IMG/VR virus record: IMGVR_UViG_638341084_000025
Strand: one strand, 5' to 3'
Source of the DNA: a virus
Lineage: Duplodnaviria; Heunggongvirae; Uroviricota; Caudoviricetes
DNA length: 24,021 nt
The notes beneath the pieces were generated by a model that was given only the letters and a program-made list of their open reading frames with translations, had not been told where the DNA came from and ran no database searches. Below, in pieces: positions 1 to 23,758 of the stretch. Every line of letters starts with the position of its first letter. The first letter of the stretch is position 1. Both the position numbers and the translations under genes were made by a program.

Positions 1-1020
1 TTAATCCCCCGTGGACACTGCGTGGACACTTACGCCACCTTTCAGCGGATTAAGGGCCACCGCATCCTGCAGGTAATCCGGTGCAAAATGCGCATATGCC
101 ATTGTTTGCTGAATGGTTGCGTGACCAAGAATCTTCTGAAGCGCAATAATGTTTCCTCCGTTCATCACAAAATGGCTGGCGAACGTATGCCGCAGCACAT
201 GTGCAGCCTGGCCTTTTGGTAAATCGGGCTTAACTCTTTTCAGCGCCAGGCAGAATTCCCGGTACTTCACCTCAAACAAGCCGCCTGTTTCTCTGGTTTT
301 GATCGCCTCACAAACTGCCTGCGAAATTGGCACTGTTCTCTTCCGGCCATTTTTGGTTTCAAGAAACGTTACACGGTTATGAACTATCTGTTCACCACGA
401 AGCTTACAAGCTTCACTCCAGCGCGCCCCTGTGCTTAAACACAAAAGCGCAACACGCCAGTAGTCGCCCTCCAGTGTATCGAGCAATAGCGCCACTTCCT
501 TCTGTGACAGGAACGCCATTTCTCGTGGAGATACATAAAGAATAGAAATTCCCCTTACTGGATGTTCTGCATCCCAAAGACCTATTTTTTTCAGCACGGT
601 AAACATTCCGGATAACCGATTCATGTACCTGTTAGCAGATGACGGTTTCAATCCTTCAGCTATCTTTTGAGAACGCCACGCGATAATTTTCAGCTTATCA
701 AGATCCACAGCCTGCATATCAGCGCCAAGCTCATTGATTATGTTGCGCAGTTGTTTTCGGTCTTCTTCCGCCTTACGCCTGTGCTGGCCGTGATACATCC
801 ACCACAACTCAAGCAAATCATTTAGCGTTCGACGATCACGGTAGCCCTGTATATATTCCCGCTTTTCAGCGTTCGCCATGATGTAGCGTTCAGTGGCCAC
901 CGCTACCGATTTTTTGTCAAATACCTTACGCACGCGCTTTCCCTTGCGTCCGTTCGGCCTGATGTCCAGCAAATAACGACCATCTTCGAGCTTCTTAATC
1001 GACATTACGAAGCCCTCCAA
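1..1020 (-). CDS. int: Phage integrase, tyrosine recombinase (P2 Int family)
   Basis: 339-aa minus-strand ORF; C-terminal catalytic region with the R..HxxR..Y pattern typical of tyrosine recombinases (VLRHTFASHF...GHATIQQTMAYAH); sits next to the repressor as in P2. Attachment site would be left of position 1, outside the window. Confidence 0.9.
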   Translation of the reverse strand: MEGFVMSIKKLEDGRYLLDIRPNGRKGKRVRKVFDKKSVAVATERYIMANAEKREYIQGYRDRRTLNDLLELWWMYHGQHRRKAEEDRKQLRNIINELGADMQAVDLDKLKIIAWRSQKIAEGLKPSSANRYMNRLSGMFTVLKKIGLWDAEHPVRGISILYVSPREMAFLSQKEVALLLDTLEGDYWRVALLCLSTGARWSEACKLRGEQIVHNRVTFLETKNGRKRTVPISQAVCEAIKTRETGGLFEVKYREFCLALKRVKPDLPKGQAAHVLRHTFASHFVMNGGNIIALQKILGHATIQQTMAYAHFAPDYLQDAVALNPLKGGVSVHAVSTGD

Positions 1021-1101
1021 TGAACCGCTCTACAATTTCTCCAGCCTCTTTCCAGCAATAATCAGACCAGACAAAAAGCAGGTCTAACCAGTTTTCTGGC
1101 C

Positions 1102-1422
1102 TCAGCGGGATAATTTTTGGATTGTTTCGGTTGAAACGCGATCTCCCTCCGAATTGCAGGAACCATCAAGAGAGAGAGCCGGAGAAATTTGCCCGACCTC
1201 CGGCATCGTTTCATCTGTTGATAACCAATAAGCATACTTCTTAAATTTAGGGTGTTTCGTAACCTTAAGTAAGGCACCCTCTGTTACTTGCTTCCCCCTC
1301 ACCTCATAGTTAGTTACCGTCCCATAAGGCAGCCCAACACAATCCGCAAACTCCTGGCGGGTCATACCTTCTGCTTCACGAATCAGGCGAAATTTTTCAC
1401 CCATGCTTGACAAAGATGCCAT
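1102..1422 (-). CDS. C: P2 C-type immunity repressor (HTH)
   Basis: Minus-strand ORF open to 1476; start chosen at the ATG (rc of 1420-1422) that has a GGAGG ~11 nt upstream (rc of 1434-1438). HTH segment MTRQEFADCVGLPYGTVTNYE and C-terminal KFKKYAYWL...GQISPAL resemble P2 C as remembered. Start is uncertain (alternatives up to 1476). Confidence 0.7.
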   Translation of the reverse strand: MASLSSMGEKFRLIREAEGMTRQEFADCVGLPYGTVTNYEVRGKQVTEGALLKVTKHPKFKKYAYWLSTDETMPEVGQISPALSLDGSCNSEGDRVSTETIQKLSR

Positions 1423-1535
1423 ATCGGGCATATCCTCCATCGAAACATGCCACATCGGGCACAAACATAAAAACACTCAAATAAGCCGATATAAGCCATT
1501 TTGAGCCATTCGAACGAATTAGGGAGATTACCACA
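1423..1535. promoter_or_regulatory. Lysis-lysogeny switch region between divergent C and cox (Pc/Pe-like), with candidate operator repeats
   Basis: Intergenic between divergent repressor and cox. Direct repeats ATAAGCC at 1482-1488 and 1492-1498, ATCGGGCA twice around 1423-1460, and palindrome TTCGAACGAA. P2 C is known to bind direct repeats flanking the Pe -10; exact promoter hexamers not assigned. Confidence 0.4.
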
Positions 1536-1823
1536 ATGAGCGAATCAGAGCTTGGGGGGTTCATTCAGGTAGCACCATATCCACTTGAAGCGGTGCCATA
1601 TCAACTATTCGCCAAGATGATCGGCCGCAAGGAATCCACAGTCAGAACCATGATTGACGCAGCAAAGCTACCGACAATTGACTTTGTGAAACCAGGTTCA
1701 GTAAAGACGCGTGCATCAGAAAACTGGGTATATCTGCCAGCATTTAACGAAGGCATGCGCAAAGCGTTTTTTGAGCAACCGAAAGAACGCCGCGACGCAT
1801 GGTTGTTGTGGCTGGGACTTTAG
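1536..1823 (+). CDS. cox: Cox-like excisionase / early repressor
   Basis: 95 aa; AVPYQLFAKMIGRKESTVRTMIDAAKLP...WVYLPAFN...RDAWLLWLGL matches the remembered P2 Cox pattern (IPYQEFAKLIG...WVYLPAWN...GWLMWLGL). RBS GGGAG upstream; divergent from C. Confidence 0.8.
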   Translation: MSESELGGFIQVAPYPLEAVPYQLFAKMIGRKESTVRTMIDAAKLPTIDFVKPGSVKTRASENWVYLPAFNEGMRKAFFEQPKERRDAWLLWLGL

Positions 1824-1829
1824 TCATAA

Positions 1830-2036
1830 ATGACCAGCCATATCATCAGCGCCATTCTGACCCTTGTTTTTATTGAGATAGGCGTAATAGCGATCTATTT
1901 GTTTCGCAAGTTAACGGGACATGAAGAACGCTTTATTGAACTCAGCATTGAATATATCGCCGCTTATACCAAAGGACTTTTCCCGGCAGCTATTGGGGCG
2001 ATGTTTATAGCGTTTGTTATCTGGTTTATCGGGTGA
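1830..2036 (+). CDS. Small membrane protein, two predicted TM helices, unknown function
   Basis: 68 aa, two hydrophobic stretches (IISAILTLVFIEIGVIAIYLF and AAIGAMFIAFVIWFIG), directly after cox in the early operon. Weak RBS. Confidence 0.45.
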   Translation: MTSHIISAILTLVFIEIGVIAIYLFRKLTGHEERFIELSIEYIAAYTKGLFPAAIGAMFIAFVIWFIG

Positions 2037-2179
2037 GAAACCTGACAACCCACAACTACTGCAATGAGGGTAATTATGTGTGGCATGGACAAATTGGACC
2101 TTATGTTAATTGTAATACTATCAATTAACTTCGGTTACCTCTTAAGCGGCGCAATTCTCATGTGCGGAGGCAAACGAAA

Positions 2180-2287
2180 ATGAACCAGCAGTCCGCAAAA
2201 CGTGAAAACAATGCGATGCGATTTAATCGCAAATATTTTGAGTTCGGCCTCTATGCCGGAATAATTAAATCTGTACAGAGTCTTTAA
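2180..2287 (+). CDS. Small basic protein (35 aa), hypothetical; below ORF-track cutoff
   Basis: ATG at 2180 preceded by GGAGG (2166-2170) at 9-nt spacing; translation MNQQSAKRENNAMRFNRKYFEFGLYAGIIKSVQSL; stop TAA 2285-2287 is 1 nt before the next gene's ATG (2289). Confidence 0.3.
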   Translation: MNQQSAKRENNAMRFNRKYFEFGLYAGIIKSVQSL

Positions 2288-2288
2288 C

Positions 2289-2630
2289 ATGAAACAGCAA
2301 CGTAATTCACGCTTTCGCAATGGTGCAGAACGCCACGCTAACCGTTTTGCTACCAGTGCATCACGCAGCAACATCCGCTACAGCCTGAGTGATACACACG
2401 CAACGCCGGATGGCTACCCAGTAAAACAAATCGGCGAGCATGCCTGGCTGATTGAGAAAGCTGGAATCGTGATCCACAAATGCCCACGCAATCCGTTTAC
2501 CGGAAACCGCATTTTTGCTCTAAGCAGTGGCGACAATCAGTTCGGGCAGGATTTCACATTATACGAAGCACTTCGCACGGTTGATCGTCTGCTTCGCGGG
2601 CAAAGTTTTATTAAACAGGCTGATTTATAA
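2289..2630 (+). CDS. Hypothetical early-region protein (113 aa)
   Basis: Intact ORF in the early operon with protein-like composition; no family recognised with confidence. Confidence 0.55.
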   Translation: MKQQRNSRFRNGAERHANRFATSASRSNIRYSLSDTHATPDGYPVKQIGEHAWLIEKAGIVIHKCPRNPFTGNRIFALSSGDNQFGQDFTLYEALRTVDRLLRGQSFIKQADL

Positions 2631-2640
2631 CAGGTGCTTT

Positions 2641-2928
2641 ATGACCAAAGACCATGCACAAGGTGTATTTATCCGTTTTATTGATTTTCGCGGTGAACTG
2701 TTATTACGCGCATCCGCTATTGACGGAGTGACTCCTGCGGGTAAAAACGGAGCCGACGAAGCCACTTACGTTTATCTGAACGGCACGCGACTGCTTGTGG
2801 AACTTCCGTACCAGACCGTACGAGAAATCATTAGCGAAGCTGAAAAGGCACGCCAGGTTAATGGCGATGAACCCTATATCGAAATTATTTGTATGGATTC
2901 AGAAGCTGAAATACAGAAAGCAGATTAA
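2641..2928 (+). CDS. Hypothetical early-region protein (95 aa)
   Basis: Track ORF 2527..2928 overlaps the upstream gene; the first ATG after that gene's stop is 2641 (MTKDHAQGVFIRF...). Confidence 0.5.
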   Translation: MTKDHAQGVFIRFIDFRGELLLRASAIDGVTPAGKNGADEATYVYLNGTRLLVELPYQTVREIISEAEKARQVNGDEPYIEIICMDSEAEIQKAD

Positions 2929-2939
2929 AGGGCGTTGTG

Positions 2940-3182
2940 ATGGGCAAAGAATATAAAACTCTCATTAACAAAGCACTTGAGCGTTTTTATTTTCGCTTAA
3001 GTGCATCAGGCGCTCATGCTGAACGTGCGGCCCGTGACTCATTGACCAGAGCAATCCGAAGTCTGTATGACGTGGCTTTTTACGCTGATGATCTGGATGC
3101 ACTTAACGAACTTTCCGAGCTGATCTGTGCCGCAGAATGCGGGGAACATATTGAACCGTATAAGCTGGGGAATATCGCATGA
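2940..3182 (+). CDS. Hypothetical early-region protein (80 aa)
   Basis: ATG 2940 (GTG 2937 alternative), AAGGG upstream; helical-looking protein with a short Cys/His stretch (LICAAECGEH). Confidence 0.5.
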   Translation: MGKEYKTLINKALERFYFRLSASGAHAERAARDSLTRAIRSLYDVAFYADDLDALNELSELICAAECGEHIEPYKLGNIA

Positions 3183-3292
3183 GTATATTTATCTCATGGC
3201 TTGTTCTGATTATTTCGGTGGCCTGCGCTATTGGGATTATGCGAATTATTCATTCAATAAAAAAGATTGAACGCTTTTTCACTGGCGAATAA
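3179..3292 (+). CDS. Small hydrophobic peptide (37 aa), single TM; below ORF-track cutoff
   Basis: ATG 3179-3181 overlaps the upstream stop TGA 3180-3182 (ATGA coupling); translation MSIFISWLVLIISVACAIGIMRIIHSIKKIERFFTGE is a hydrophobic helix followed by a basic tail. Locally AT-rich. Confidence 0.3.
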   Translation: MSIFISWLVLIISVACAIGIMRIIHSIKKIERFFTGE

Positions 3293-3378
3293 CAGAGCAA
3301 ATAAAACCACAGATTAAATAAGAAAATGTAAAAACAATCCGCATTCGCGGAGGTATTCGCACACGCCAAGGAGGCGTA

Positions 3379-3582
3379 ATGGCAATTAAGCATTTTCCTG
3401 TCGTTCGTTTTACCTCCAGAGGGCGNGAATACGAAGTCGACGAACGCCTGATTACCACAATCGACAAACACCGTTCAGAAAAGGATGCACATCACATCTA
3501 TCTCACTGACGGCACTTACTTCTGCGCCACGAATGTGGTGCGGGTGAACCTTATCCGACAGGTACAGGAGTCACGCAGATGA
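3379..3582 (+). CDS. Hypothetical early-region protein (67 aa)
   Basis: Strong RBS AAGGAGG before ATG 3379; ATGA-coupled to the next ORF. Contains one N (3426). Confidence 0.5.
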   Translation: MAIKHFPVVRFTSRGXEYEVDERLITTIDKHRSEKDAHHIYLTDGTYFCATNVVRVNLIRQVQESRR

Positions 3583-3824
3583 CCATTCTGGACCATATCG
3601 CCGCCAATCCGGGGTGTAGCGGTGGAGAAATCGCCGCAGCACTGAATACCCCAACCACAGCCATTAATGCGGAGTTACGCCGACTCTGGCGCAGCGGTTC
3701 AGTCATAAGAAAAGAGCGCAAAACAGGCGGTCGCTTTTCTTACCAGATAAACCCGATGCCGTTCGGGTGCGGCAATCCACTTACCAACATGTTTAACCAG
3801 CTACTGAAGGAAGCCAGAGCATGA
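3579..3824 (+). CDS. Putative winged-helix DNA-binding protein (81 aa)
   Basis: ATGA overlap with upstream ORF; ILDHIAANPGCSGGEIAAALNTPTTAINAELRRLWRSGSV looks like a helix-turn-helix/wing; fold inferred only. Confidence 0.55.
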   Translation: MTILDHIAANPGCSGGEIAAALNTPTTAINAELRRLWRSGSVIRKERKTGGRFSYQINPMPFGCGNPLTNMFNQLLKEARA

Positions 3825-4120
3825 GCGCCATCAACCACCAGGAATTACGCGAACTGGCGACTGACCTGCAACGAATGGCAACGCCTCAAAAATTACTGGC
3901 GTTTCGCGCAATGCTCTCGCCGTCTGCTGTGCTGGCGCTGCTGGATGAGCTGGAGCACGCCAGAACCACACCTCTCGCCATTCGCCTGACGCTCCGTCAT
4001 GAAATCGAGGATTTCTGCGCGACGTTGGAGGCGCCAGGCGAACCGGAAACGCCGGAAGCAATACAGAAAGAGCTGCTGCAACGCATTGACAAGGTTTTTG
4101 ATTTTTTTCTGAACCACTAA
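3821..4120 (+). CDS. Hypothetical early-region protein (99 aa)
   Basis: ATGA overlap with upstream ORF; acidic, helical-looking protein. Confidence 0.55.
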   Translation: MSAINHQELRELATDLQRMATPQKLLAFRAMLSPSAVLALLDELEHARTTPLAIRLTLRHEIEDFCATLEAPGEPETPEAIQKELLQRIDKVFDFFLNH

Positions 4121-4152
4121 GAAACCAGAACATGCACACACAAAAAAACCGC

Positions 4153-4181
4153 TTGCCATGCCGCAATCAGTCAGGTTACAT
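4153..4181 (+). promoter_or_regulatory. Candidate sigma70 promoter (TTGCCA-17 nt-TTACAT)
   Basis: -35 TTGCCA 4153-4158, 17-nt spacer, -10 TTACAT 4176-4181; by hexamer match only. Confidence 0.3.
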
Positions 4182-4187
4182 TTCCGC

Positions 4188-4263
4188 TGCACCTCACAAA
4201 ACGGGTGCCGGGTTTCGCAGCCTGCTGACTACACAAGCGCACAACCGCGCCAGCGGTTTTTTT
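4188..4263 (+). ncRNA. Candidate ~76-nt small RNA: 5' hairpin plus intrinsic terminator
   Basis: Lies between the candidate promoter and the terminator; hairpin GCACC(4189-4193)/GGTGC(4204-4208); no ribosome-binding site or credible ORF inside; carries repeats GTTTCGCAGC and ACTACACAAG that recur in the downstream leader. Confidence 0.25.
4243..4263 (+). terminator. Rho-independent terminator
   Basis: Stem AACCGC(4243-4248)/GCGGTT(4253-4258), 4-nt loop, then a run of seven T (4257-4263). Confidence 0.55.
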
Positions 4264-4275
4264 GTGCGTACTGTA

Positions 4276-4304
4276 TTGCCACGTTTTTTTCGCGTCAGAA
4301 TTAT
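4276..4304 (+). promoter_or_regulatory. Candidate second promoter (TTGCCA-17 nt-AATTAT) for the ORF76/ORF121/A transcript
   Basis: Same -35 hexamer as the upstream candidate promoter; located just after the terminator. Confidence 0.25.
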
Positions 4305-4442
4305 GGCGGGGCGTACGGGGCCGACTTCGGTCGGGCCGGGTTCTTGTGTAGCCGGTACTGCGAACCTCGTACGTCTCGCCACCCACAGTTTCGCAGCTCT
4401 GGATGGTGAGTTTTCACAACTTACTACACAAGGGGCCACACC

Positions 4443-4673
4443 ATGGCAAACCGCAAACCACACCGCGCTATCGCGGAGCGTCGTCACATCCAGACTGAAA
4501 TCAACCGCAGACTTTCCCGCGCATCACGCGTCGCGCAAATCATGCACATCAATATGTTGCATGAGCGCAGCCACGCACTATCAAACATTTATTCCGCCTC
4601 TGTTTTCAGCTATCTGGCGGATGATCTGCACGAGCTTCAACAGCTCATCCAGCAGCAAAACAAACTCCATTAA
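4443..4673 (+). CDS. Hypothetical small basic protein (76 aa)
   Basis: ATG 4443 with AAGGGG at 7-nt spacing; Arg/His-rich, no Cys; no family recognised. Confidence 0.4.
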   Translation: MANRKPHRAIAERRHIQTEINRRLSRASRVAQIMHINMLHERSHALSNIYSASVFSYLADDLHELQQLIQQQNKLH

Positions 4674-4745
4674 TTCCTGTTCCGGGCCTTTCCTGCACCT
4701 TGCGGCGGGAGGCCTTCGCACATCTGTAACAAGAGGATTGCCGCA

Positions 4746-5111
4746 ATGATTCTCGCCAACGACTTTCTTGAATACCTGCTCAACACAGAACGTGATCTTG
4801 CCGCTCGCGTGCGTGATCGTTATGACATGTACCTGAAATCCCTGCCTGTACCGCAGCTCGCTGACGGAAAGATTGTTATTGATGGTCGCTACATGATTGA
4901 CAGCCACGAGGGAAATTACAGGCTTTACCGCATTGAAGGTGGCACCCCGTCCGTTATTGGCATTTACCAGCGCCCATCCTCTGCAATCGTCGATGTGATT
5001 GCCGACAGCATCCGCATCACACATCGCCATGCCGACACAGAAGACACCGTGCTGGAAATTCAGCGGCTGGCTACAGTCTGCCGCGACACCCTGAATGGCA
5101 TGACGAAGTAA
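4746..5111 (+). CDS. Hypothetical protein (121 aa) immediately upstream of A
   Basis: Intact ORF ending 6 nt before the A start; globular-looking composition. Confidence 0.5.
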   Translation: MILANDFLEYLLNTERDLAARVRDRYDMYLKSLPVPQLADGKIVIDGRYMIDSHEGNYRLYRIEGGTPSVIGIYQRPSSAIVDVIADSIRITHRHADTEDTVLEIQRLATVCRDTLNGMTK

Positions 5112-5117
5112 ATCACT

Positions 5118-7940
5118 ATGACGGCAGAGTATATCAGGGACTGGCAACAACCGCGCCACGCAGTGGGGCGTGAAGGAACGGAGATCCCCGCTCCTGAATC
5201 CGCGCTTTCCTCCTGGCTGGATGCCTACCGGGTAGAGAACGAACGCCGCCAGGAAATGGCTGATGCGGCGTTCTCCGCCACGCCGCTGGGCAACCTGATT
5301 AATAAAAGCCTGGACGCACAGGAAAAACAGGACAAAACCATCACACTGGCAGGAGACGCCAGAAAACAGGCACGTGGCGCGGTGGATGAAGCCATGGCCT
5401 CACTGCGCCTGCTGCCGTCCTATCTGCGCGATCCGCTTATTCGCCACCTCTCCTTCCTGCGCAAAAAACAGGAAGCCGATCGCCGGAAAGGCAAAAAGAG
5501 CTGGCAGGCTGAACGCTACGCGTGCGGAACCCTGCGCAAAATATTCGAACGTCTGGACCGCACCGACCACCGCTGGCTGACACCGGGTTATCGCTCCCTT
5601 GCCGGACGCGAACGCCTGGATGATTTGCTTTACCTGCCGCAGCTCAACAAACACCAGATACAGACGCTGGCCACCATGACGGCGGCGATGTTCAGCAGCA
5701 CCTTCGAAAAACTCTGCGATGGCTTTGGCGCGACTGATGGCGAGCTGACCATGGATGTAACGCTGAAGGCTTATCAGATGCTGGCCCGCATGGCGTTACA
5801 CCTGCACGCCATGCCTCCACATTATGACGCACTGACAACAGACAAAGACCGGAGGAACGAACCGGACACGGAGCTGCTGCCGGGCGCAATCCTTCGCCTG
5901 ACCTGTGCGGAATGGTGGAAACGCAAACTGTGGCTGTTACGTTGTGAGTGGCGGGAAGAACAACTCCGCGCCGCCTGTCTGGTTTCCAGAAAAACATCCC
6001 CCTATCTGAGCCAGGACGCGTTAAGCGAGTTTCGCGCACAGCGCGAGAAAACGCGCGATTTCCTGAAAAGTTTCATGCTGGAAAATGAAGACGGGTTCAC
6101 GATTGATCTCGAGACGGTGTATTACGCGGGAGTAAGTAACCCGGTTCACCGTAAGGCAGAAATGATGGCCACCATGAAGGGACTGGAACTTCTGGCCGAA
6201 GCCCGTGGCGACAGAGCGGTGTTTCTGACCGTCACCTGCCCGTCAAAATACCACGCAACAACGGAGAACGGTCATCCGAACCCCAAATGGAACGGGGCCA
6301 CCATGCGCGACTCCAGCGATTACCTGGTTAACACGTTTTTTGCGGCGGTCCGCAAAAAACTGAACCGCGACGGCCTGCGCTGGTATGGCATCCGCACGGT
6401 GGAGCCTCACCATGACGGCACTGTGCACTGGCATATGATGGTCTTTGCACATCCGGACGAGATTGAAACCATCGTGTCCCACGTCTGCGATATTGCCATT
6501 CAGGAGGACCGCCACGAGCTGGGCGATGACATAACTCCGCGTTTTAAGGCGGAGTATGTCGACGGCTCAAAAGGCACACCAACCAGCTACATCGCCACCT
6601 ACATCGGAAAGAACCTGGACAGCCGCGCCGTGGATGGCATCGACCCGAAAACGGGCAAGCCACGCGTTGACCACGAAACAGGTAAATCAATGGCCGAGAG
6701 CGTGGAGCGCGCCATCGGCTGGGCGCGCCTTCACCGGGTCCGTCAGTTCCAGTTCTTTGGCATCCCCTCCCGTCAGGTGTGGCGTGAACTGCGCCGCCTT
6801 GCCAGCCAGATGGCACGCAATCCGGAAGGCCCGCAACGGCTGAAAGATGATGCAATGGATGCGGTACTCGCTGCCGCCGATGCCGGGTGTTTTGCCACCT
6901 ACATTGAAAAACAGGGTGGCGTGCTTGTTCCACGCAAGGACTACCTGATTCGCACCGCCTACGACCTCGCAGATGAGCTGAACGATTACGGCGAACAGAG
7001 CGTACAGATTTACGGGATCTGGTCACCACTCATCGGGGAATCCTCCCGTGTGTGCACGCATCCGGATAACTGGAAGCTGGTAAGACGTAAACCAGAACCG
7101 GAAGACAACGCCCACGAAAATGGTTTTGACCTTCAGGGCGGCCCTGCCGCCCCTTGGACTCGTGGCAATAACTGTCCCCGTGTACAGGAAACAGGCAACA
7201 ACGGGACAGAACAGCCGGAAGAACGGCCAGCACCGTGGCCGCAGCTTCCTGACGGCGTTGAAGTAAATGAATGGATGCGCTCACTGAAACGGCACGAACG
7301 CCGGGCGCTGATGCGTTCGCTTCGTGACAAACAGGCAAAAAACAGCAGCGATGAAATGCAGAACTGGACACAGAGCCGCAAACAGCAGCGGCCTTTGCCT
7401 GATAACCACGAGTTACTCGCTAAAGAATGGCGGGAGTCTGCTGAATCTCTCGGCCTGCATATCGGTGAACAACAGATGCAGCACCTGTTACGGGGCGGCA
7501 GTCTGTACGTTGACGGCAGCATCATTGCACCGCAGGGATTTGAAATTGTACGCAAACCGGATACCCGCCCGGACAGCCGAATCACGCAGCTCTGGCAGCG
7601 TCTGAGCCGTAATCATGGCGTAAGCAGCACGGAGATCCGCCATAACCCGGTCGCCAGCTATCTGGCACAGCTGGGGGCATCAGACCCTGAAGCCGCCGCA
7701 CGCCTGGCATCCACACTTCAGCAGGACCAGAACACCATGAAAACACCCGTTACCGTGCTTTCTGACATGCTGCGCGCCATCCGCGACGCAGAGCACGCAC
7801 AGAGAATCAGTGAAACCACTGAACGCGCCAGCCGCAAAGCAGACCTGCTGCGGGGTGGCCTGACCAGTGGAAACAAAAAACAGACAGAAACGGGACTCAC
7901 GAATCCCGTAAATGAGCAAAAAACGCGCAGCGATATATGA
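5118..7940 (+). CDS. A: Replication initiation endonuclease, P2 gpA family (HUH rolling-circle initiator)
   Basis: 940 aa; HUH-type motif VHWHMMVF and paired active-site tyrosines YIATYIGK as in P2 A; position after the early genes. The C-terminal ~300 aa is low-complexity and appears to extend beyond P2 A (761 aa from memory). Confidence 0.85.
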   Translation: MTAEYIRDWQQPRHAVGREGTEIPAPESALSSWLDAYRVENERRQEMADAAFSATPLGNLINKSLDAQEKQDKTITLAGDARKQARGAVDEAMASLRLLPSYLRDPLIRHLSFLRKKQEADRRKGKKSWQAERYACGTLRKIFERLDRTDHRWLTPGYRSLAGRERLDDLLYLPQLNKHQIQTLATMTAAMFSSTFEKLCDGFGATDGELTMDVTLKAYQMLARMALHLHAMPPHYDALTTDKDRRNEPDTELLPGAILRLTCAEWWKRKLWLLRCEWREEQLRAACLVSRKTSPYLSQDALSEFRAQREKTRDFLKSFMLENEDGFTIDLETVYYAGVSNPVHRKAEMMATMKGLELLAEARGDRAVFLTVTCPSKYHATTENGHPNPKWNGATMRDSSDYLVNTFFAAVRKKLNRDGLRWYGIRTVEPHHDGTVHWHMMVFAHPDEIETIVSHVCDIAIQEDRHELGDDITPRFKAEYVDGSKGTPTSYIATYIGKNLDSRAVDGIDPKTGKPRVDHETGKSMAESVERAIGWARLHRVRQFQFFGIPSRQVWRELRRLASQMARNPEGPQRLKDDAMDAVLAAADAGCFATYIEKQGGVLVPRKDYLIRTAYDLADELNDYGEQSVQIYGIWSPLIGESSRVCTHPDNWKLVRRKPEPEDNAHENGFDLQGGPAAPWTRGNNCPRVQETGNNGTEQPEERPAPWPQLPDGVEVNEWMRSLKRHERRALMRSLRDKQAKNSSDEMQNWTQSRKQQRPLPDNHELLAKEWRESAESLGLHIGEQQMQHLLRGGSLYVDGSIIAPQGFEIVRKPDTRPDSRITQLWQRLSRNHGVSSTEIRHNPVASYLAQLGASDPEAAARLASTLQQDQNTMKTPVTVLSDMLRAIRDAEHAQRISETTERASRKADLLRGGLTSGNKKQTETGLTNPVNEQKTRSDI

Positions 7941-8016: not shown

Positions 8017-8976
8017 ATGAAAATTTACATCGACGACGGCTCCACCAACATCAAGCTGGCATGGACTGAGAACGGCGAACGCCGCAACGCCATCAGCCCG
8101 AACAGCTTCAAGTCGGAATGGTCTGCGCCGTTCGGTGGCTCGCAGCCTGCTAACTACATGCTTGATGGCGTGCGCTATGGTTTTGATCCGGTCAGCGATC
8201 GCTTTGTCCAGACGACCGACACGCAATACCAGTACAGCGATGTGAATGTCATTGCCATTCATCACGCGCTGGTCAAATCAGACATCACGCCACAGGAAGT
8301 GGATGTGGTTGTTACCCTGCCACTGAGCGAATATTTCGACACAAACGCACAGCCGGACATGGCCAACATCAACCGCAAAAAAGCGAACGTCATGCGCCCG
8401 GTGGAGTACCAGAACGGCGAAGCATTCACTATCCGTAACGTACGGGTTATGCCTGAATCCATTCCGGCTGGCTTTAAAGCACTGGCTGACATGAGTCCGT
8501 TTGAATCCCTGCTGATTGTGGATTTGGGCGGAACCACGCTGGATGTGGCAAAGGTTCAGGGGCAACTGGCAGGTATCAGCCAGGTGTTTTGCGATCCACA
8601 CGTAGGCGTTTCTCTTATGGCCGATGCCGTACTGTCGGTGATGGCCACTAACGGTATGCGCACCAGTCACCACATCGCCAATACCATTATCGAACATCGC
8701 CATAATGAAGCCTGGCTGCGCCAGCACATCCACAATGACGCGCATTACGCCAGCCTGATGGCGGTTATTCGTGAAAAGGAAGAAACACTGAAACAACGCG
8801 TGATCCGCGCGCTGGCGGTTTTTTCGGGTTACGGGCGGGTGATGGTTGTCGGTGGCGGGGCGGAGATTGTGGCACCCGCTATCCGCGAAGCCTGCGGAGT
8901 TAATGCGACTTTCATCGCGGACGGGGTGCCACANTTTGCTCTGGTTAATGGGCTGTACGCAATGGACAAGGAGTAA
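8017..8976 (+). CDS. parM: Actin-like segregation ATPase ParM/StbA
   Basis: 319 aa; MKIYIDDGSTNIKLAW, YSDVNVIAIHHAL, VMPESIPAG, LIVDLGGTTLD and VMVVGGGAEI closely follow the remembered plasmid R1 ParM sequence. One N at 8934. Confidence 0.85.
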   Translation: MKIYIDDGSTNIKLAWTENGERRNAISPNSFKSEWSAPFGGSQPANYMLDGVRYGFDPVSDRFVQTTDTQYQYSDVNVIAIHHALVKSDITPQEVDVVVTLPLSEYFDTNAQPDMANINRKKANVMRPVEYQNGEAFTIRNVRVMPESIPAGFKALADMSPFESLLIVDLGGTTLDVAKVQGQLAGISQVFCDPHVGVSLMADAVLSVMATNGMRTSHHIANTIIEHRHNEAWLRQHIHNDAHYASLMAVIREKEETLKQRVIRALAVFSGYGRVMVVGGGAEIVAPAIREACGVNATFIADGVPXFALVNGLYAMDKE

Positions 8977-8980
8977 ACCA

Positions 8981-9292
8981 ATGACGACACCAACCAGACG
9001 GATAAGTTTCTATCTGAAGCCCGCCGCCGTCAAGAACGAAGGAGAAGCATGCGCCTGGCTGGACAGCCTTACACCAGAAGCCCGCAAAAGCGGCCAACGC
9101 GTGGCTTTTCTGGCCGGGCTGGCACTTCTGAAGACGAATCCGGCAGAGGCTTACCGACTGGCCGCATGGGCTGATGATGAGATGTTACCTGTGACACAAA
9201 TCAGCTCAAAAAAGTTTGAAGCACAGTCTGCACCAGTGGCTAAGATAACCAGCCAGATGGCTGGGAATATCCGGGCGTTATTTCCTGAGTAA
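8981..9292 (+). CDS. parR: ParR-like centromere-binding adaptor (putative)
   Basis: 103 aa immediately after parM (stop 8976, ATG 8981, RBS AAGGAG); N-terminal RISFYLKP...ACAWLDSL and FLAGLALL loosely resemble R1 ParR (RHH fold). Assigned mainly by position and size. Confidence 0.45.
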   Translation: MTTPTRRISFYLKPAAVKNEGEACAWLDSLTPEARKSGQRVAFLAGLALLKTNPAEAYRLAAWADDEMLPVTQISSKKFEAQSAPVAKITSQMAGNIRALFPE

Positions 9293-16225: not shown

Positions 16226-16720
16226 ATGAGTATGGTTGCCAGAACCAACCCCGGCCCCGCAGAGGACGACATCACCGATACCGATGATGGTGATACCCGT
16301 ATTTCAGCGGGTGCATTCTGGCCGGATATTGTGCTGCGTGAGCTGCGTCTGGCGGTACGACTGCCGGGCCGTGTGACCACCTCCCGTCTGCTGCATACCG
16401 CCACCGGGGCTGTGGCACATGTTACCCGCGAGCTGGAAGCATGGCAGCAGGAACAGCAGGCGGCTGGCCATCAGACGCTGGCCGATGTTCCGGCACCCGT
16501 AATTAACGGAGAAAGCGTCAATCTCTGGCACTGGCGCAATGCGGTTTACACCGCCACACGCGCCCTGATTCTGGAGCGTTACCGCGATGCGGACACAACG
16601 GACAAGGGCGACCGCCGGGCGGACGCACTGGATATACAGACATCGGATTTGTGGCGTGATGTGAGCTGGGCCATCTCTGACATTCTGTGCCGTCCGCGAA
16701 TCTTTGCGGAGTTGTGCTGA
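16226..16720 (+). CDS. L: Head completion/stabilisation protein (P2 gpL)
   Basis: Start at ATG 16226 (AGGAG upstream); FWPDIVLRELRL...RLLHTATGAVAHVTREL...WRDVSWAISDIL...ELC parallels P2 L. Confidence 0.85.
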   Translation: MSMVARTNPGPAEDDITDTDDGDTRISAGAFWPDIVLRELRLAVRLPGRVTTSRLLHTATGAVAHVTRELEAWQQEQQAAGHQTLADVPAPVINGESVNLWHWRNAVYTATRALILERYRDADTTDKGDRRADALDIQTSDLWRDVSWAISDILCRPRIFAELC

Positions 16721-16920
16721 TGAAAGTAAAGGCACTGGAAGGCGACACCGTGGATTCGCTCTGTTTCCGGTACTACGGCACGACGCAGGGCGTCACCGAA
16801 AAGGTGCTGGATGCCAACCCCGGACTCTGTCAGCAGGTATTTCTGGACGCCGGGCAGGAAGTGGAGATGCCGGAGCCGGAGAAGAAGAAACGAGAAATGA
16901 TTCAGTTGTGGGGGGAGTAG
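16720..16920 (+). CDS. X: Tail protein X (P2 gpX)
   Basis: 66 aa from ATG 16720, which overlaps the L stop; size and position fit P2 X. Confidence 0.7.
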   Translation: MKVKALEGDTVDSLCFRYYGTTQGVTEKVLDANPGLCQQVFLDAGQEVEMPEPEKKKREMIQLWGE

Positions 16921-16922
16921 CA

Positions 16923-17246
16923 GTGAGCACCATTCAAACAGGGATCACAGAGCAGGTTATTGCATGGCTCTTTGACCACCTGCCAACGGTGTATGCAGTA
17001 GGCGCGGCGGTCAGCATTTCCGCGCTGATGAGTCTTTATGACGGACGAACACTGGTTCAGACCGTAACGGGATCGCTGGCGTGCGGCGTTCTTGCCATGG
17101 CCGTGGCCGGGTCGTTGCGCTTCTTCGGTTTTCCTGAAGATGCCGTGACGTTTATCGGCGCATCAATCGGTTTTATGGGGGCAGAGAAAGCACGCGACAA
17201 GGTTATTGCGGCCTTTAATCGCAGGGTGAAGGAGAAGGACGAATGA
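16923..17246 (+). CDS. Y: Holin (P2 gpY-like)
   Basis: GTG 16923 with GGGGGGAG upstream; ~107 aa with two or three hydrophobic helices and a charged C-terminus; ATGA-coupled to the endolysin. Confidence 0.6.
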   Translation: MSTIQTGITEQVIAWLFDHLPTVYAVGAAVSISALMSLYDGRTLVQTVTGSLACGVLAMAVAGSLRFFGFPEDAVTFIGASIGFMGAEKARDKVIAAFNRRVKEKDE

Positions 17247-17635
17247 GCAACACATTTAAATTCAGCAGCCGGAGCGAAAAGAATTTGCAGGGCGTAAATC
17301 CTGATCTGGTGAAAGTGACCCGACGGGCACTGGAAATCTCGGAAGTGGATTTTGGTATCACCGAAGGGTTGCGCAGCCGTTACCGCCAGAAGCAACTGGT
17401 GGCCACGGGTAAGAGCCAGACCATGAACAGCCGCCACCTTACGGGGCATGCCGTGGATGTTGTGGCTTATATCGGCAGCCAGGTGTCATGGGAATGGTCG
17501 CTGTACGAAAAAATCGCAGCAGCATTCAGACAGGCCAGCCGGGAACTGAATATTCCGGTGGAATGGGGCGGCGACTGGAAGACCCTGAAAGACGGACCGC
17601 ATTTTCAGTTACCACACGGAGCCTATCCGGCATGA
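17243..17635 (+). CDS. Endolysin, peptidase M15 (L-alanyl-D-glutamate peptidase type)
   Basis: 130 aa; SRHLTGHAVDV and GGDW...DGPHFQL motifs are typical of M15 zinc peptidase endolysins; this is not the P2 K lysozyme family. Confidence 0.75.
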   Translation: MSNTFKFSSRSEKNLQGVNPDLVKVTRRALEISEVDFGITEGLRSRYRQKQLVATGKSQTMNSRHLTGHAVDVVAYIGSQVSWEWSLYEKIAAAFRQASRELNIPVEWGGDWKTLKDGPHFQLPHGAYPA

Positions 17636-18039
17636 AGCTCTGGCCCACGCTGGGTGTCGCTTTCCTTCTGATTGCCGCATGGGGAACATCCATACGTCTG
17701 TCGTGGTCGCTGGGCCGGGAGAACGCCAGAAACGAAGCGCAGGCCAGCACCCTGAAAAGTACCGTCGACACCCTGAATATCATCAGCACCGGGGTACAGG
17801 ATATGCAGCAGGTGCTGGCGCAACTCCGCGTGGAAAATCAGCAACGCAATCAGGACGGAGAAGCCAGACGTGAACAGCTACGCAACGATATTGCAAAAGA
17901 TGAATGCGCCCACGCTTTGCCTGATGCTCGTTTTACTGACAGGTTGCGCAGGCACGCAGAACGCGCCACGGCCAGCGCCGTCAGTCCGGCTTATACCGCA
18001 GACGCTGACCATACCGGTAACGCCTCCCCCCTTCCCTGA
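17632..18039 (+). CDS. lysB: Inner-membrane spanin (Rz/LysB-like)
   Basis: ATG 17632 overlaps the endolysin stop; N-terminal TM (LWPTLGVAFLLIAAW) followed by a charged coiled-coil-like region. Confidence 0.6.
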   Translation: MKLWPTLGVAFLLIAAWGTSIRLSWSLGRENARNEAQASTLKSTVDTLNIISTGVQDMQQVLAQLRVENQQRNQDGEARREQLRNDIAKDECAHALPDARFTDRLRRHAERATASAVSPAYTADADHTGNASPLP

Positions 18040-18190
18040 CACTCCCACATGGGGAAATCTCGGTATATGGGGCGACCGCCTTCTGGATGCACTGGAAACC
18101 TGTAACGCGGATAAACGGGCCATTGAATTACTGGAACAGCGCAGACTGCAACGACTGAACAACGAGGACAACAACCATGCTGAAAACTGA
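17870..18190 (+). CDS. lysC: Outer-membrane lipoprotein spanin (Rz1/LysC-like)
   Basis: Different frame, overlapping the 3' half of lysB; lipobox LLTGC and Pro-rich mature region; start may instead be the internal ATG 17900. Confidence 0.5.
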   Translation: MNSYATILQKMNAPTLCLMLVLLTGCAGTQNAPRPAPSVRLIPQTLTIPVTPPPFPDTPTWGNLGIWGDRLLDALETCNADKRAIELLEQRRLQRLNNEDNNHAEN

Positions 18191-21096: not shown

Positions 21097-21697
21097 TTCG
21101 TTGTTACCACCATCAGCCAGCAATTTCATGCGTTGTGCCGAAGCCGTCGGAACACGCATTACAGACATTCCGGTAGACCTCAACACGCTGTGGTCGCCGG
21201 ACACCTGCCCGGTGCATCTGCTGCCTTATCTCGCCTGGGCGTTTTCCGTTGACCGCTGGGATCGCAACTGGCCGGAAGAGACAAAGCGACAGGTGATTCG
21301 TGATGCATGGCTGATACACCGACACAAAGGGACCATCAGCGCACTGCGAAGAGCCGTGGAGCCTCTCGGTTACCTGATTGAAGTAAAGGAGTGGTGGCAA
21401 CTCAACGAGGAGCCGGGAACATTTCGCATTGTTGTCGGAGTACTTGATCAGGGCATCACCGATGAAATGTATCAGGAACTTGAGCGCCTTATTGCGGATG
21501 CAAAACCAGTAAGTCGCCATCTGACGGGGCTGGCGATCAGCCTGAGTGTGAACGGAAAGATTTTCGTTGGTACGGGATGCTATCACGGCGATGCCCTGAC
21601 GGTTTATCCCTACACCCCGGAGTCCATTATTGTCGAAGGGGACTATTTCCCTGCCCCGGCCATTCATTTAATTGATAATCTGAGAGTAAACGCATGA
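21089..21697 (+). CDS. I: Baseplate protein I (P2 gpI)
   Basis: Start at ATG 21089, overlapping the J stop; LWSPDTCPVHLLPYLAWAFSVDRWD and ERLIADAKPVSRHLTGL parallel P2 I. Confidence 0.85.
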   Translation: MSNSLLPPSASNFMRCAEAVGTRITDIPVDLNTLWSPDTCPVHLLPYLAWAFSVDRWDRNWPEETKRQVIRDAWLIHRHKGTISALRRAVEPLGYLIEVKEWWQLNEEPGTFRIVVGVLDQGITDEMYQELERLIADAKPVSRHLTGLAISLSVNGKIFVGTGCYHGDALTVYPYTPESIIVEGDYFPAPAIHLIDNLRVNA

Positions 21698-23304
21698 CAG
21701 TGAAATACTACGCCATTCTGACTAATCAGGGCGCGGCACGACTGGCTAACGCGACGATGCTCGGCAGTAAGCTGAATCTGACGCAAATGGCCGTTGGTGA
21801 TGCAAATGGTGTGTTACCAACACCAGACCCTGCACAAACAAAACTGATTAACCAGAAACGCATTGCACCGCTGAATCTTCTGAGTGTTGACCCTAACAAT
21901 CAGAGCCAGATTATTGCGGAGCAAATCATCCCTGAAAACGAGGGAGGATTCTGGATCCGTGAGATTGGTCTTTATGATGATGAAGGTGTACTCATTGCGG
22001 TGGCAAACTGCCCGGAAACGTACAAACCGCAGTTGCAGGAAGGCAGTGGTCGTACCCAGACTATCCGCATGATTCTGGTTGTCACGAACACCGAAGCCAT
22101 CACGCTGAAAATCGACCCGTCTGTGGTTCTGGCAACCCGCAAATATGTGGATGATAAAATCTCAGAGCACGAACAGTCACGACATCACCCGGACGCCTCG
22201 CTGACCGCAAAAGGTTTTACTCAGTTAAGCAGTGCAATTAACAGTGAATCAGAAACACTGGCCGCAACACCGAAAGCAGTTAAGGCTGCATATGACCTGG
22301 CTGACGGGAAATATACCGCCCAGAACGCCACCACAACACAAAAAGGGATTGTTCAGCTCAGTAGCGCCACGAACAGCACGTCTGAAACGCTGGCAGCAAC
22401 ACCAAAAGCTGTTAAGGCGGTAATGGATGAAACGAACAAGAAAGCACCATTAAACAGCCCGGCACTGACCGGAACGCCAACAACACCAACAGCGCCACAG
22501 GGGACTAATAGTACCCAGATCGCAAGCACGGCTTTCGTTATGGCCGCGATTGCCGCACTTGTAGATTCGTCACCTGATGCACTAAACACGCTGAGCGAAC
22601 TGGCTGCGGCGCTGGGCAATGACCCGAATTTTGCGACCACCATGACTAACGCGCTTGCGGGTAAGCAACCGAAAGATGCCACCCTGACGGCGCTGGCCGG
22701 GCTTGTTACTGCGGCAGACAGGTTTCCGTATTTTACGGGGAATGACGTTGCCAGTTTGGCAACCCTGACAGAAGTCGGGCGGGATATTCTTGCGAAATCG
22801 ACCGTTGCCGCTGTTATCGAATACCTCGGTTTACAGGAAACGGTAAACAAGGCTGGTAACGCCGTTCAGCGTTCCGGCGATAAAATGACCGGAGAACTGA
22901 AAATTGGAACGATGAATGCGCTGCGAATTTTTAATGATGCCTTCGGTCTTATTTTCCGCCGTTCAGAAGAGTCCCTTCATTTCATCCCTACGGCTGAAGG
23001 ACAAGGCGAAAACGGTGATATCGGCCCATTAAGGCCATTCGCTATAAATCTAAGAACAGGTGCTATATATGTCAGCCACGGGGCCAAAATTGAAGGAGGT
23101 CTAGCTATTGGTGCTACTGATAACGCACTGGGTGAAAACTCCATTGTTCTGGGAGATAACGACACCGGATTTAGGCAAGATGGAGATGGTATTATTAGCT
23201 TCTATTCAAATGGTTCGCGCATCGGACATATTGATGGGTTAGGATTACATCTTTATAAAGATATTGAATCTAATTGCAGCAATTTTAGATTAAAAAGTAA
23301 TTAG
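21694..23304 (+). CDS. H: Tail fibre protein H (P2 gpH-like), 3' end abutting IS2
   Basis: 536 aa; conserved N-terminus MTVKYYAILTNQGAARLANA; internal duplicated tail-fibre repeat (QLSSAxNSxSETLAATPKAVKA twice); AT-rich 3' portion; its stop codon TAG (23302-23304) is the first three bases of the IS2 left end. Confidence 0.85.
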   Translation: MTVKYYAILTNQGAARLANATMLGSKLNLTQMAVGDANGVLPTPDPAQTKLINQKRIAPLNLLSVDPNNQSQIIAEQIIPENEGGFWIREIGLYDDEGVLIAVANCPETYKPQLQEGSGRTQTIRMILVVTNTEAITLKIDPSVVLATRKYVDDKISEHEQSRHHPDASLTAKGFTQLSSAINSESETLAATPKAVKAAYDLADGKYTAQNATTTQKGIVQLSSATNSTSETLAATPKAVKAVMDETNKKAPLNSPALTGTPTTPTAPQGTNSTQIASTAFVMAAIAALVDSSPDALNTLSELAAALGNDPNFATTMTNALAGKQPKDATLTALAGLVTAADRFPYFTGNDVASLATLTEVGRDILAKSTVAAVIEYLGLQETVNKAGNAVQRSGDKMTGELKIGTMNALRIFNDAFGLIFRRSEESLHFIPTAEGQGENGDIGPLRPFAINLRTGAIYVSHGAKIEGGLAIGATDNALGENSIVLGDNDTGFRQDGDGIISFYSNGSRIGHIDGLGLHLYKDIESNCSNFRLKSN

Positions 23305-23392
23305 ACTGGCCCCCTGAATCTCCAGACAACCAGTATCACTTAAATAAGTGATAGTCTTAATACTAGTTTTTAGACTAGTCATTGGAGAACAG

Positions 23393-23758
23393 ATGATTGA
23401 TGTCTTAGGGCCGGAGAAACGCAGACGGCGTACCACACAGGAAAAGATCGCAATTGTTCAGCAGAGCTTTGAACCGGGGATGACGGTCTCTCTCGTTGCC
23501 CGGCAACATGGTGTAGCAGCCAGCCAGTTATTTCTCTGGCGTAAGCAATACCAGGAAGGAAGTCTTACCGCTGTCGCCGCCGGAGAACAGGTTGTTCCTG
23601 CCTCTGAACTTGTTGCCGCCATGAAGCAGATTAAAGAACTCCAGCGCCTGCTCGGCAAGAAAACGATGGAAAATGAACTCCTCAAAGAAGCCGTTGAATA
23701 TGGACGGGCAAAAAAGTGGATAGCGCACGCGCCCTTATTGCCCGGGGATGGGGAGTAA
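23393..23758 (+). CDS. insC: IS2 transposase OrfA (InsC)
   Basis: 121 aa, [56 protein letters not shown]... essentially identical to IS2 InsC as remembered. Confidence 0.9.

Follow-up and report, generated by a model that had tools for sequence, protein, structure and literature searches.

The 37-codon open reading frame at 3179–3292 (plus strand, stop codon included; ATG at 3179–3181, TAA at 3290–3292) is, on comparative sequence evidence, very probably a genuine gene encoding a membrane peptide, MSIFISWLVLIISVACAIGIMRIIHSIKKIERFFTGE. As to what that peptide does, the reading we favor, with a probability of roughly 0.55, is a bitopic inner-membrane peptide of the early lytic phase, coupled to the upstream DUF4754 gene, that acts by binding a membrane protein. 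The earlier note on this DNA had placed a 37-aa frame here, and its coordinates and sequence proved exact. It had also called the peptide unannotated, which is true only of the 60-aa ORF track: the identical protein is present in RefSeq (PGAP) as WP_000021652.1, a “hypothetical protein”; the homologue in phage P88, YP_009113050.1, is 97% identical and named “membrane protein”; Xuanwuvirus P884B11 carries an annotated peptide that is 100% identical; and UniRef uses the names “Membrane protein” and “Prophage membrane protein”. In short, the peptide is already listed in databases and is an ordinary but well-supported small phage gene. The general lesson is that a 60-aa ORF cut-off hides a well-supported gene under purifying selection, in about one-quarter of complete E. 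coli genomes.

Genomic setting and coupling to DUF4754

The window, meaning the whole stretch of 24,021 nucleotides that was analyzed, covers the left two-thirds of an Escherichia coli prophage of the P88-like type (genus Xuanwuvirus, family Peduoviridae, P2-like). The 701 bases surrounding the peptide ORF match Xuanwuvirus P884B11 at 99.3% identity and phage P88 at 94%. On the minus strand lie the integrase (1–1020) and a C-type repressor, which in the gene order falls between the integrase and a Pe-like promoter at 1407–1436. That promoter is upstream of cox (1536–1823), the first of a plus-strand string of short genes, and the early operon ends with the GpA replication endonuclease (5118–7940). 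The peptide ORF thus sits in the early lytic operon between cox and A, all of which is expected to be silenced in a lysogen by the C repressor.

Immediately upstream of the peptide ORF, and preceding it in every locus examined, is an 80-aa gene at 2940–3182 (plus strand; phrog_2549; WP_000514277.1) that matches the Pfam family DUF4754 over its full length (PF15946, E=2.8e-54). Its TGA (3180–3182) overlaps the ATG of the peptide in a shared ATGA, so that the coupling proposed in the earlier note is present here, and it is conserved in 96 of 97 homologous loci. A Shine-Dalgarno-like GGGGA (plus strand, 3167–3171, with GGGG at 3167–3170) lies 7–8 nt 5′ of the ATG, within the last codons of DUF4754. 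The signal is only moderate: the anti-Shine-Dalgarno duplex energy at the peptide start is −5.5 kcal/mol, as against −4.8 to −6.9 kcal/mol for the other coupled genes of the operon, and it ranks in about the top 19% among window positions. The purine- and G-rich run before the ATG is retained even where the C-terminal residues of DUF4754 differ (CTTGGGAGCGCCGCATGA, GAAGGGGAAACATGA, GAGGAGCTGGCATGA). A promoter scan near the peptide gene found no promoter of its own that stands out above chance; the only promoter-like match nearby, at 2965–2993 with 9 of 12 positions matching, is of a kind found 6 times against 4.9 expected. Database proteins of 103–128 aa labeled “DUF4754” were considered as possible fusions to the peptide and set aside as frameshift or assembly artifacts, since they mostly read the third frame. 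The AlphaFold model of DUF4754 is all-helical (pLDDT 88.8) and found no fold match in the PDB at E≤0.001, so the protein is predicted to be an acidic, generic helical bundle whose fold offers no functional lead. Because DUF4754 and the peptide are always paired, they are best studied together.

Evidence for a real gene under selection

To follow the frame through its relatives, 97 homologous loci were compiled from IMG/VR, GenBank phages, RefSeq genomes, and other assemblies. An ATG overlapping the DUF4754 stop, followed by an open frame of 30–45 codons, is present in 96 of them, which answers the question of whether the ORF and its coupling are conserved in related prophages; the frame has 37 codons in 84 loci, 45 in seven, 41 in four, and 30 in one. 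The sole broken frame is that of phage 503458, where several indels affect both this region and the annotation of the replication gene; the locus was treated as a poor assembly or a decayed copy. Substitutions were analyzed over the first 29 codons of 30 distinct alleles. Polymorphic sites fall at codon positions 1, 2, and 3 in the numbers 10, 5, and 17, and pairwise Nei-Gojobori dN/dS is 0.26 in the peptide frame versus 1.24 and 1.04 in the two alternative frames; the DUF4754 genes of these loci give 0.12.

Three divergent alleles (L092, L099, and L100) differ at 26–40 of 108 nt with no stop codon or indel and with an excess of synonymous changes (Fisher p 1e-5 to 1e-4). Between the window allele and L099 or L100, 38–40 of 108 nt differ (35–37%), with pS 0.74, pN 0.23–0.26, and Fisher p ~1e-5, and the replacements at this distance are conservative. 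Both loci keep the same architecture, an 80-aa gene and then a small gene with the 4-nt overlap and a purine-rich Shine-Dalgarno sequence, and the host of L100 is also E. coli. Moreover, their DUF4754 homologue has diverged further than the peptide (pN 0.48–0.54), and by this comparison the peptide is the more constrained half of a fixed DUF4754-peptide gene pair. Taken together, the frame-specific substitutions, a frame that stays open at high divergence, and the conserved overlap and Shine-Dalgarno sequence are strong evidence of translation and purifying selection. As for direct translation data, CFT073, a uropathogenic strain with Ribo-seq, carries a 186-like prophage and lacks a P88-like one.

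The earlier note had also taken the minus-strand ORFs at 3250–3471 to be, probably, spurious shadows of the peptide ORF. They are spurious, since the region is colinear in 43 of 97 loci and the ORFs are broken in 11–17 of those, but they are hardly shadows of the peptide, which they overlap by just 43 nt; mainly they shadow the intergenic region and the downstream plus-strand gene at 3379–3582.

A conserved hairpin bounds the pair on the right

A hairpin with a 5-bp stem, TCCGC-ATTC-GCGGA, lies at 3338–3351 (plus strand), after an A-rich tract at 3326–3337 and 46 nt past the stop codon of the peptide. It is found in 96 of 96 loci, including the divergent L099 and L100; in 17 loci a C-G pair has changed to T-A in compensatory fashion, and in 6 loci there are G-U wobbles that fit only plus-strand RNA. 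Immediately to its right the gene content is mosaic, and sequence downstream of 3365 is unconserved between loci. Hence DUF4754, the peptide, and the hairpin behave as one conserved module. The P88-type hairpin has no U-tract on the plus strand, and on the minus strand it resembles a weak intrinsic terminator; its role may lie in RNA processing or stability, in a nut-like site, or in a protein-binding palindrome. At the corresponding point in their early operons, 186 and P2 have annotated terminators (tR1, and one after gene B), which in 186 come after the host-modifying genes fil and dhr; the likeness should be taken as a positional analogy only. A second RNA element was looked at and rejected: a long-range helix predicted by folding, between the last codons of the ORF (GCGAAUA) and 3354–3360, is not kept in GAAGAATAA alleles or where the downstream sequence is altered (alleles read by eye).

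The next gene of the operon in the window, 67 aa at 3379–3582 (plus strand, phrog_3459), has a strong Shine-Dalgarno sequence of its own (−11.4 kcal/mol), and in many loci other genes stand before it or in its place; one ambiguous base (N) at 3427, inside this gene, marks an unresolved position of the assembly. Many P88-like phages have, between the hairpin and the 67-aa gene, an inserted gene of about 137 aa that carries no functional annotation (2708–3118 in L086; 3446–3859 in L087–L090 and L095–L096), and its slot is a variable, moron-like one inside the early operon.

Predicted structure and topology of the peptide

Codons 2–21, SIFISWLVLIISVACAIGIM (3182–3241, plus strand), are predicted by hydrophobicity, AlphaFold, and the alignments to form a transmembrane helix, and codons 22–37, RIIHSIKKIERFFTGE (3242–3289, plus strand), a basic amphipathic tail on the cytoplasmic side. 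The mean Kyte-Doolittle value of residues 3–21, 2.68, is the highest in the window, where 274 ORFs reach 30 aa, and the summed Hessa scale over the same residues is −2.9 kcal/mol. Since 2 of 161 other small ORFs also exceed a mean of 2.5 (both of them antisense ORFs inside gpA), the hydrophobicity of the peptide ORF alone could be due to chance, and it is conservation rather than hydrophobicity that takes the ORF beyond it. With the family alignment, AlphaFold predicts one continuous helix over residues 2–35 at a mean pLDDT of 88.5, rising to 93–96 over the predicted transmembrane segment. All the basic residues are C-terminal to the hydrophobic core, where the tail has four K/R against two D/E, and by the positive-inside rule this predicts an N-out/C-in topology; an inner-membrane peptide so oriented is the most likely form of the product. 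The description in the earlier note of a single-pass membrane peptide with a basic tail is thus borne out at the level of prediction, in the modeled helix, the hydrophobic N-terminal 20 residues, and the net-basic tail.

Positions conserved throughout the alignments are S6, W7, L10, S/A13, A17, G19, R/K22, I23, I24, and K28, and the tail motif K28-x-I30-E31-x-(F/L)-F34-T-G-(E/D) is retained in the most divergent family members. The small residues at 6, 13, and 17 recur with helical periodicity, a pattern that would be typical of helix-helix packing faces. The extreme C terminus varies. About 12% of alleles have alternative tails (frameshifted, extended, or truncated) that arise when single bases are gained or lost in the A6 and T5 runs close to the 3′ end: the A AAA AAG run at 3259–3265 (plus strand) and the T5 run at 3275–3279 make a mutational hot spot, with frameshifted tails in the 45-aa alleles. 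Either the last 5–9 residues are dispensable, then, or the tail-variant alleles are defective. Programmed −1 frameshifting of the dnaX or IS3 type at A AAA AAG was considered and rejected. Of 96 loci, 70 have the heptamer in phase and 26 have lost it; L092, L099, and L100 do not have it, and inspection of the window sequence by eye found no upstream Shine-Dalgarno sequence or convincing downstream hairpin around it.

Family and distribution

No significant match to the peptide was found in Pfam, PHROGs, NCBIfam, PADLOC, or PDB sequences; in Pfam at E up to 1, the solitary hits are DUF6007 and PET117, both at E ~0.2. Searching 1.84 billion representative proteins with a profile brought up just 17 matches, and the eight that were retrieved are all family members or fragments, with no distant relatives among these eight; they include 41-aa members 57–68% identical to the window peptide. 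By exact look-up, the 37-mer falls in a 90% cluster of 183 members and occurs on about 1000 contigs, and the region was found in 1366 of 5426 complete E. coli genomes. When one genome from each of 185,579 species was scanned, matches came from E. albertii and a “Vagococcus” assembly alone. The latter match (L103; NZ_JBQPOM010000071.1, “Vagococcus sp. WN89Y”, Firmicutes) is on a 226-kb contig with a P88-like early region at 92% identity and a peptide at 97%, and is most likely E. coli contamination of the assembly. As far as these searches extend, the family does not appear to reach beyond P88-like (Xuanwuvirus) prophages in Escherichia and its close relatives. Literature searches on the peptide sequence, DUF4754, and P88 turned up no publication mentioning the peptide gene or DUF4754.

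A proposed role as a membrane-protein binder

For the peptide and its partner we infer membrane insertion, topology, timing of expression, a partnership with DUF4754, and the existence of a host target, and the scheme that joins them would run as follows. The early lytic operon would be transcribed from the Pe-like promoter upstream of cox through to the replication gene A. Ribosomes that finish DUF4754 most likely reinitiate at the ATG overlapping its stop codon, with the help of the modest Shine-Dalgarno sequence, so that DUF4754 and the peptide would be made together, early in lytic growth. The peptide would fold as one long helix, spanning the membrane from about residue 2 to 21 with its N terminus outside and laying its basic amphipathic residues 22–37 along the cytoplasmic face. 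The face of small residues (S6, S/A13, A17, and G19, with W7 at the outer interface) would pack against a larger inner-membrane protein, and the tail motif, K-x-I-E-x-F/L-F-T-G-E/D, would reach a partner in the cytoplasm, with the acidic, helical DUF4754 as the obvious candidate. The outcome would be a host membrane function modified early in lytic development.

The proposed contact between the peptide and DUF4754 comes from their obligate adjacency and complementary charge alone, and we regard the binder scheme with DUF4754 as the partner as tentative, well short of an even chance. A bolder version, which we consider doubtful, makes the two proteins a dedicated host-takeover module of P88-like phages: through its conserved helix face the peptide would bind and inhibit a specific and possibly essential host inner-membrane protein, and DUF4754 would control or deliver it. 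The protein hit could possibly serve in division or envelope synthesis, or be a transporter that rival phages use. Should that version be true, the peptide would be a natural inhibitor not known before, aimed at a target that is also new.

Several known systems come close to the peptide. Enterobacterial small single-pass inner-membrane regulators such as AcrZ, MgrB, MgtS, CydX, and PmrR (reviewed in PMC12648545) have, like the peptide, 30–50 residues, one transmembrane helix, and a short soluble extension; regulators of the AcrZ/MgrB type bind larger membrane proteins and are often missed by length cut-offs. Unlike them, the peptide comes from a phage, is made from an early lytic operon, and has a conserved soluble protein as its translationally coupled partner; it shows no Pfam or NCBIfam similarity. 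Within the P2-like phages, the equivalent genome position in 186 is held by fil, a cell-division inhibitor, and dhr, an inhibitor of host DNA replication; according to the NC_001317 annotation these are short, non-essential genes that run from the cox/apl switch to the replication genes and have a hairpin or terminator after them. Neither Fil (75 aa) nor Dhr (66 aa) is related to the peptide in sequence; Dhr is plainly a soluble protein, and Fil is mostly polar, its only hydrophobic stretch being a short one close to the C terminus. That a 37-mer can have a specific membrane-protein target is known from LysM of phage M, which has 37 aa and blocks MurJ. LysM is one of the Sgl proteins of ssRNA phages, single-helix peptides that inhibit an essential host membrane enzyme. 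The Sgl proteins, whose diversity is treated in PMC7693330, share with the peptide their size class and the combination of a transmembrane helix with a short tail; the Sgl proteins are, however, lysis genes of ssRNA phages with no sequence similarity to the peptide, and the dsDNA phage here has a full lysis cassette elsewhere. If the peptide does act on one particular host protein, it would add to the few viral mini-proteins known as inhibitors of membrane machinery.

Alternative readings

A different way to use such a peptide would be to damage the membrane outright, as a pore-former or depolarizer of the type I toxin kind or as a minimal holin, with DUF4754 either neutralizing it or irrelevant; the effect would be to shut down host energy metabolism or to block competing phages in lytic growth. 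The size, the single transmembrane helix, and the short charged C-terminal extension all fit the type I membrane toxins, some of which reside in prophages (PMC12648545), and Hok/Gef, TisB, IbsC, LdrD, ShoB, DinQ, and ZorO are likewise small and hydrophobic, with one transmembrane helix and a charged C terminus. The locus, however, does not look like theirs. The peptide gene is internal to a polycistronic operon and co-translated with a conserved partner, where a type I toxin would have a separate transcription unit, and the peptide matches no curated small-toxin family in Pfam and none in NCBIfam. There is no Rfam RNA at the peptide locus and no minus-strand promoter-like site in a consensus scan of 1000–5200, and since the sequence right of the hairpin is unconserved, there is no conserved antisense transcription unit either; a type I toxin-antitoxin arrangement is accordingly unsupported and was rejected as a candidate. 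The conserved polar and small residues and the tail motif would also suggest specific contacts over bulk membrane disruption. As for a holin, the phage has its own cassette at 16.7–18.2 kb, with a holin (PF05106), an M15 endolysin, and the spanin gene LysC at 16704–18190, and the role of lysis-cassette holin was rejected for a peptide encoded in the early operon 13.5 kb away. In sum, we find a membrane-damaging toxin unlikely, and prefer the membrane-protein binder.

The earlier note had suggested superinfection exclusion; in one form of this, the lysogen would express the peptide and block DNA entry of incoming phages. Small inner-membrane proteins do exclude superinfecting phages elsewhere, as with T4 Imm, P22 SieA, and HK97 gp15, and these are, as predicted for the peptide, encoded by phages and located in the inner membrane; T4 Imm also belongs to the early genes. 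They are larger, however, with at least two transmembrane helices or more than 80 aa, and most are expressed from the prophage or from promoters of their own. The peptide is smaller, shows no homology to them, and has no PADLOC match. Moreover, it is encoded between cox and A, where the C repressor is expected to silence it in the lysogen, and the promoter-like match at 2965–2993 is no better than chance. A repressor-controlled early operon with no standout promoter of the peptide's own argues against exclusion by a resting lysogen, but not against a role in an infected or induced cell. The known defense genes of P2-type phages are at other hot spots, going by PMC9122126 and by the moron positions given in PMC3573123. 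Exclusion by a lysogen expressing this peptide is improbable in our view, and clearly more so than membrane damage.

It could also be argued that there is no protein at all, the frame being open by chance and conserved for an RNA or DNA function or through recent common ancestry. Chance hydrophobic small ORFs do occur (the two others in the window), most alleles are more than 90% identical, and frameshift variants of the tail are tolerated. Against this stand the frame-specific pattern of substitution, the frame that remains open with conservative replacements at 35–37% DNA divergence, and a start-stop overlap and Shine-Dalgarno sequence conserved despite the changing DUF4754 C terminus, and we rate a non-coding origin as very improbable. 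Least probable of all is a processed precursor, either a lipoprotein (lipobox SVAC, Cys16) or a Sec signal peptide cut after ACA to leave a mature extracytoplasmic product of about 20 residues: S13-V14-A15-C16 is loosely lipobox-like and A15-C16-A17 AxA-like, but Cys16 is F, M, or S in family members P0141, P0136, and P0059, no K/R gives a positively charged n-region before the hydrophobic core, hydrophobicity extends beyond the putative cleavage site, and the C-terminal position of the basic residues favors C-in.

Other features of the window

The peptide ORF has two other small hydrophobic ORFs for company in the early operon: one of 68 aa at 1830–2036 (phrog_14475), with two hydrophobic stretches resembling transmembrane helices, and one of 39 aa at 2064–2183, in a stretch where P884B11 annotates small CDSs. 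The early operon seemingly codes for several membrane mini-proteins. Farther along it, Rfam identifies isrK (4189–4263, 64 bits) and the C4 antisense RNA (4299–4386, 83 bits) directly 5′ of a “Derepression” family protein (4443–4673), and this is a P1/P7-style, c4-ant-like immunity or derepression module within a P2-like early operon. A 205-aa ORF at 4132–4749 spans the module, overlaps both RNA genes, and may be a miscall; a colinear 618-nt CDS of P884B11 is named “transcriptional regulator”. At the other end of the window, an IS3-family transposase orfA (HTH_Tnp_1) at 23348–23758 starts 44 nt past the tail-fiber gene (21694–23304); an insertion sequence interrupting the tail-fiber region means that this copy of the prophage may be defective. 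Finally, the variable slot between the replication gene A and the portal gene Q is filled by a ParM/StbA-type actin-like ATPase (8017–8976, E=1e-80) and a StbB-like plasmid stability protein (8846–9292), a plasmid-partition system aboard an integrating prophage.
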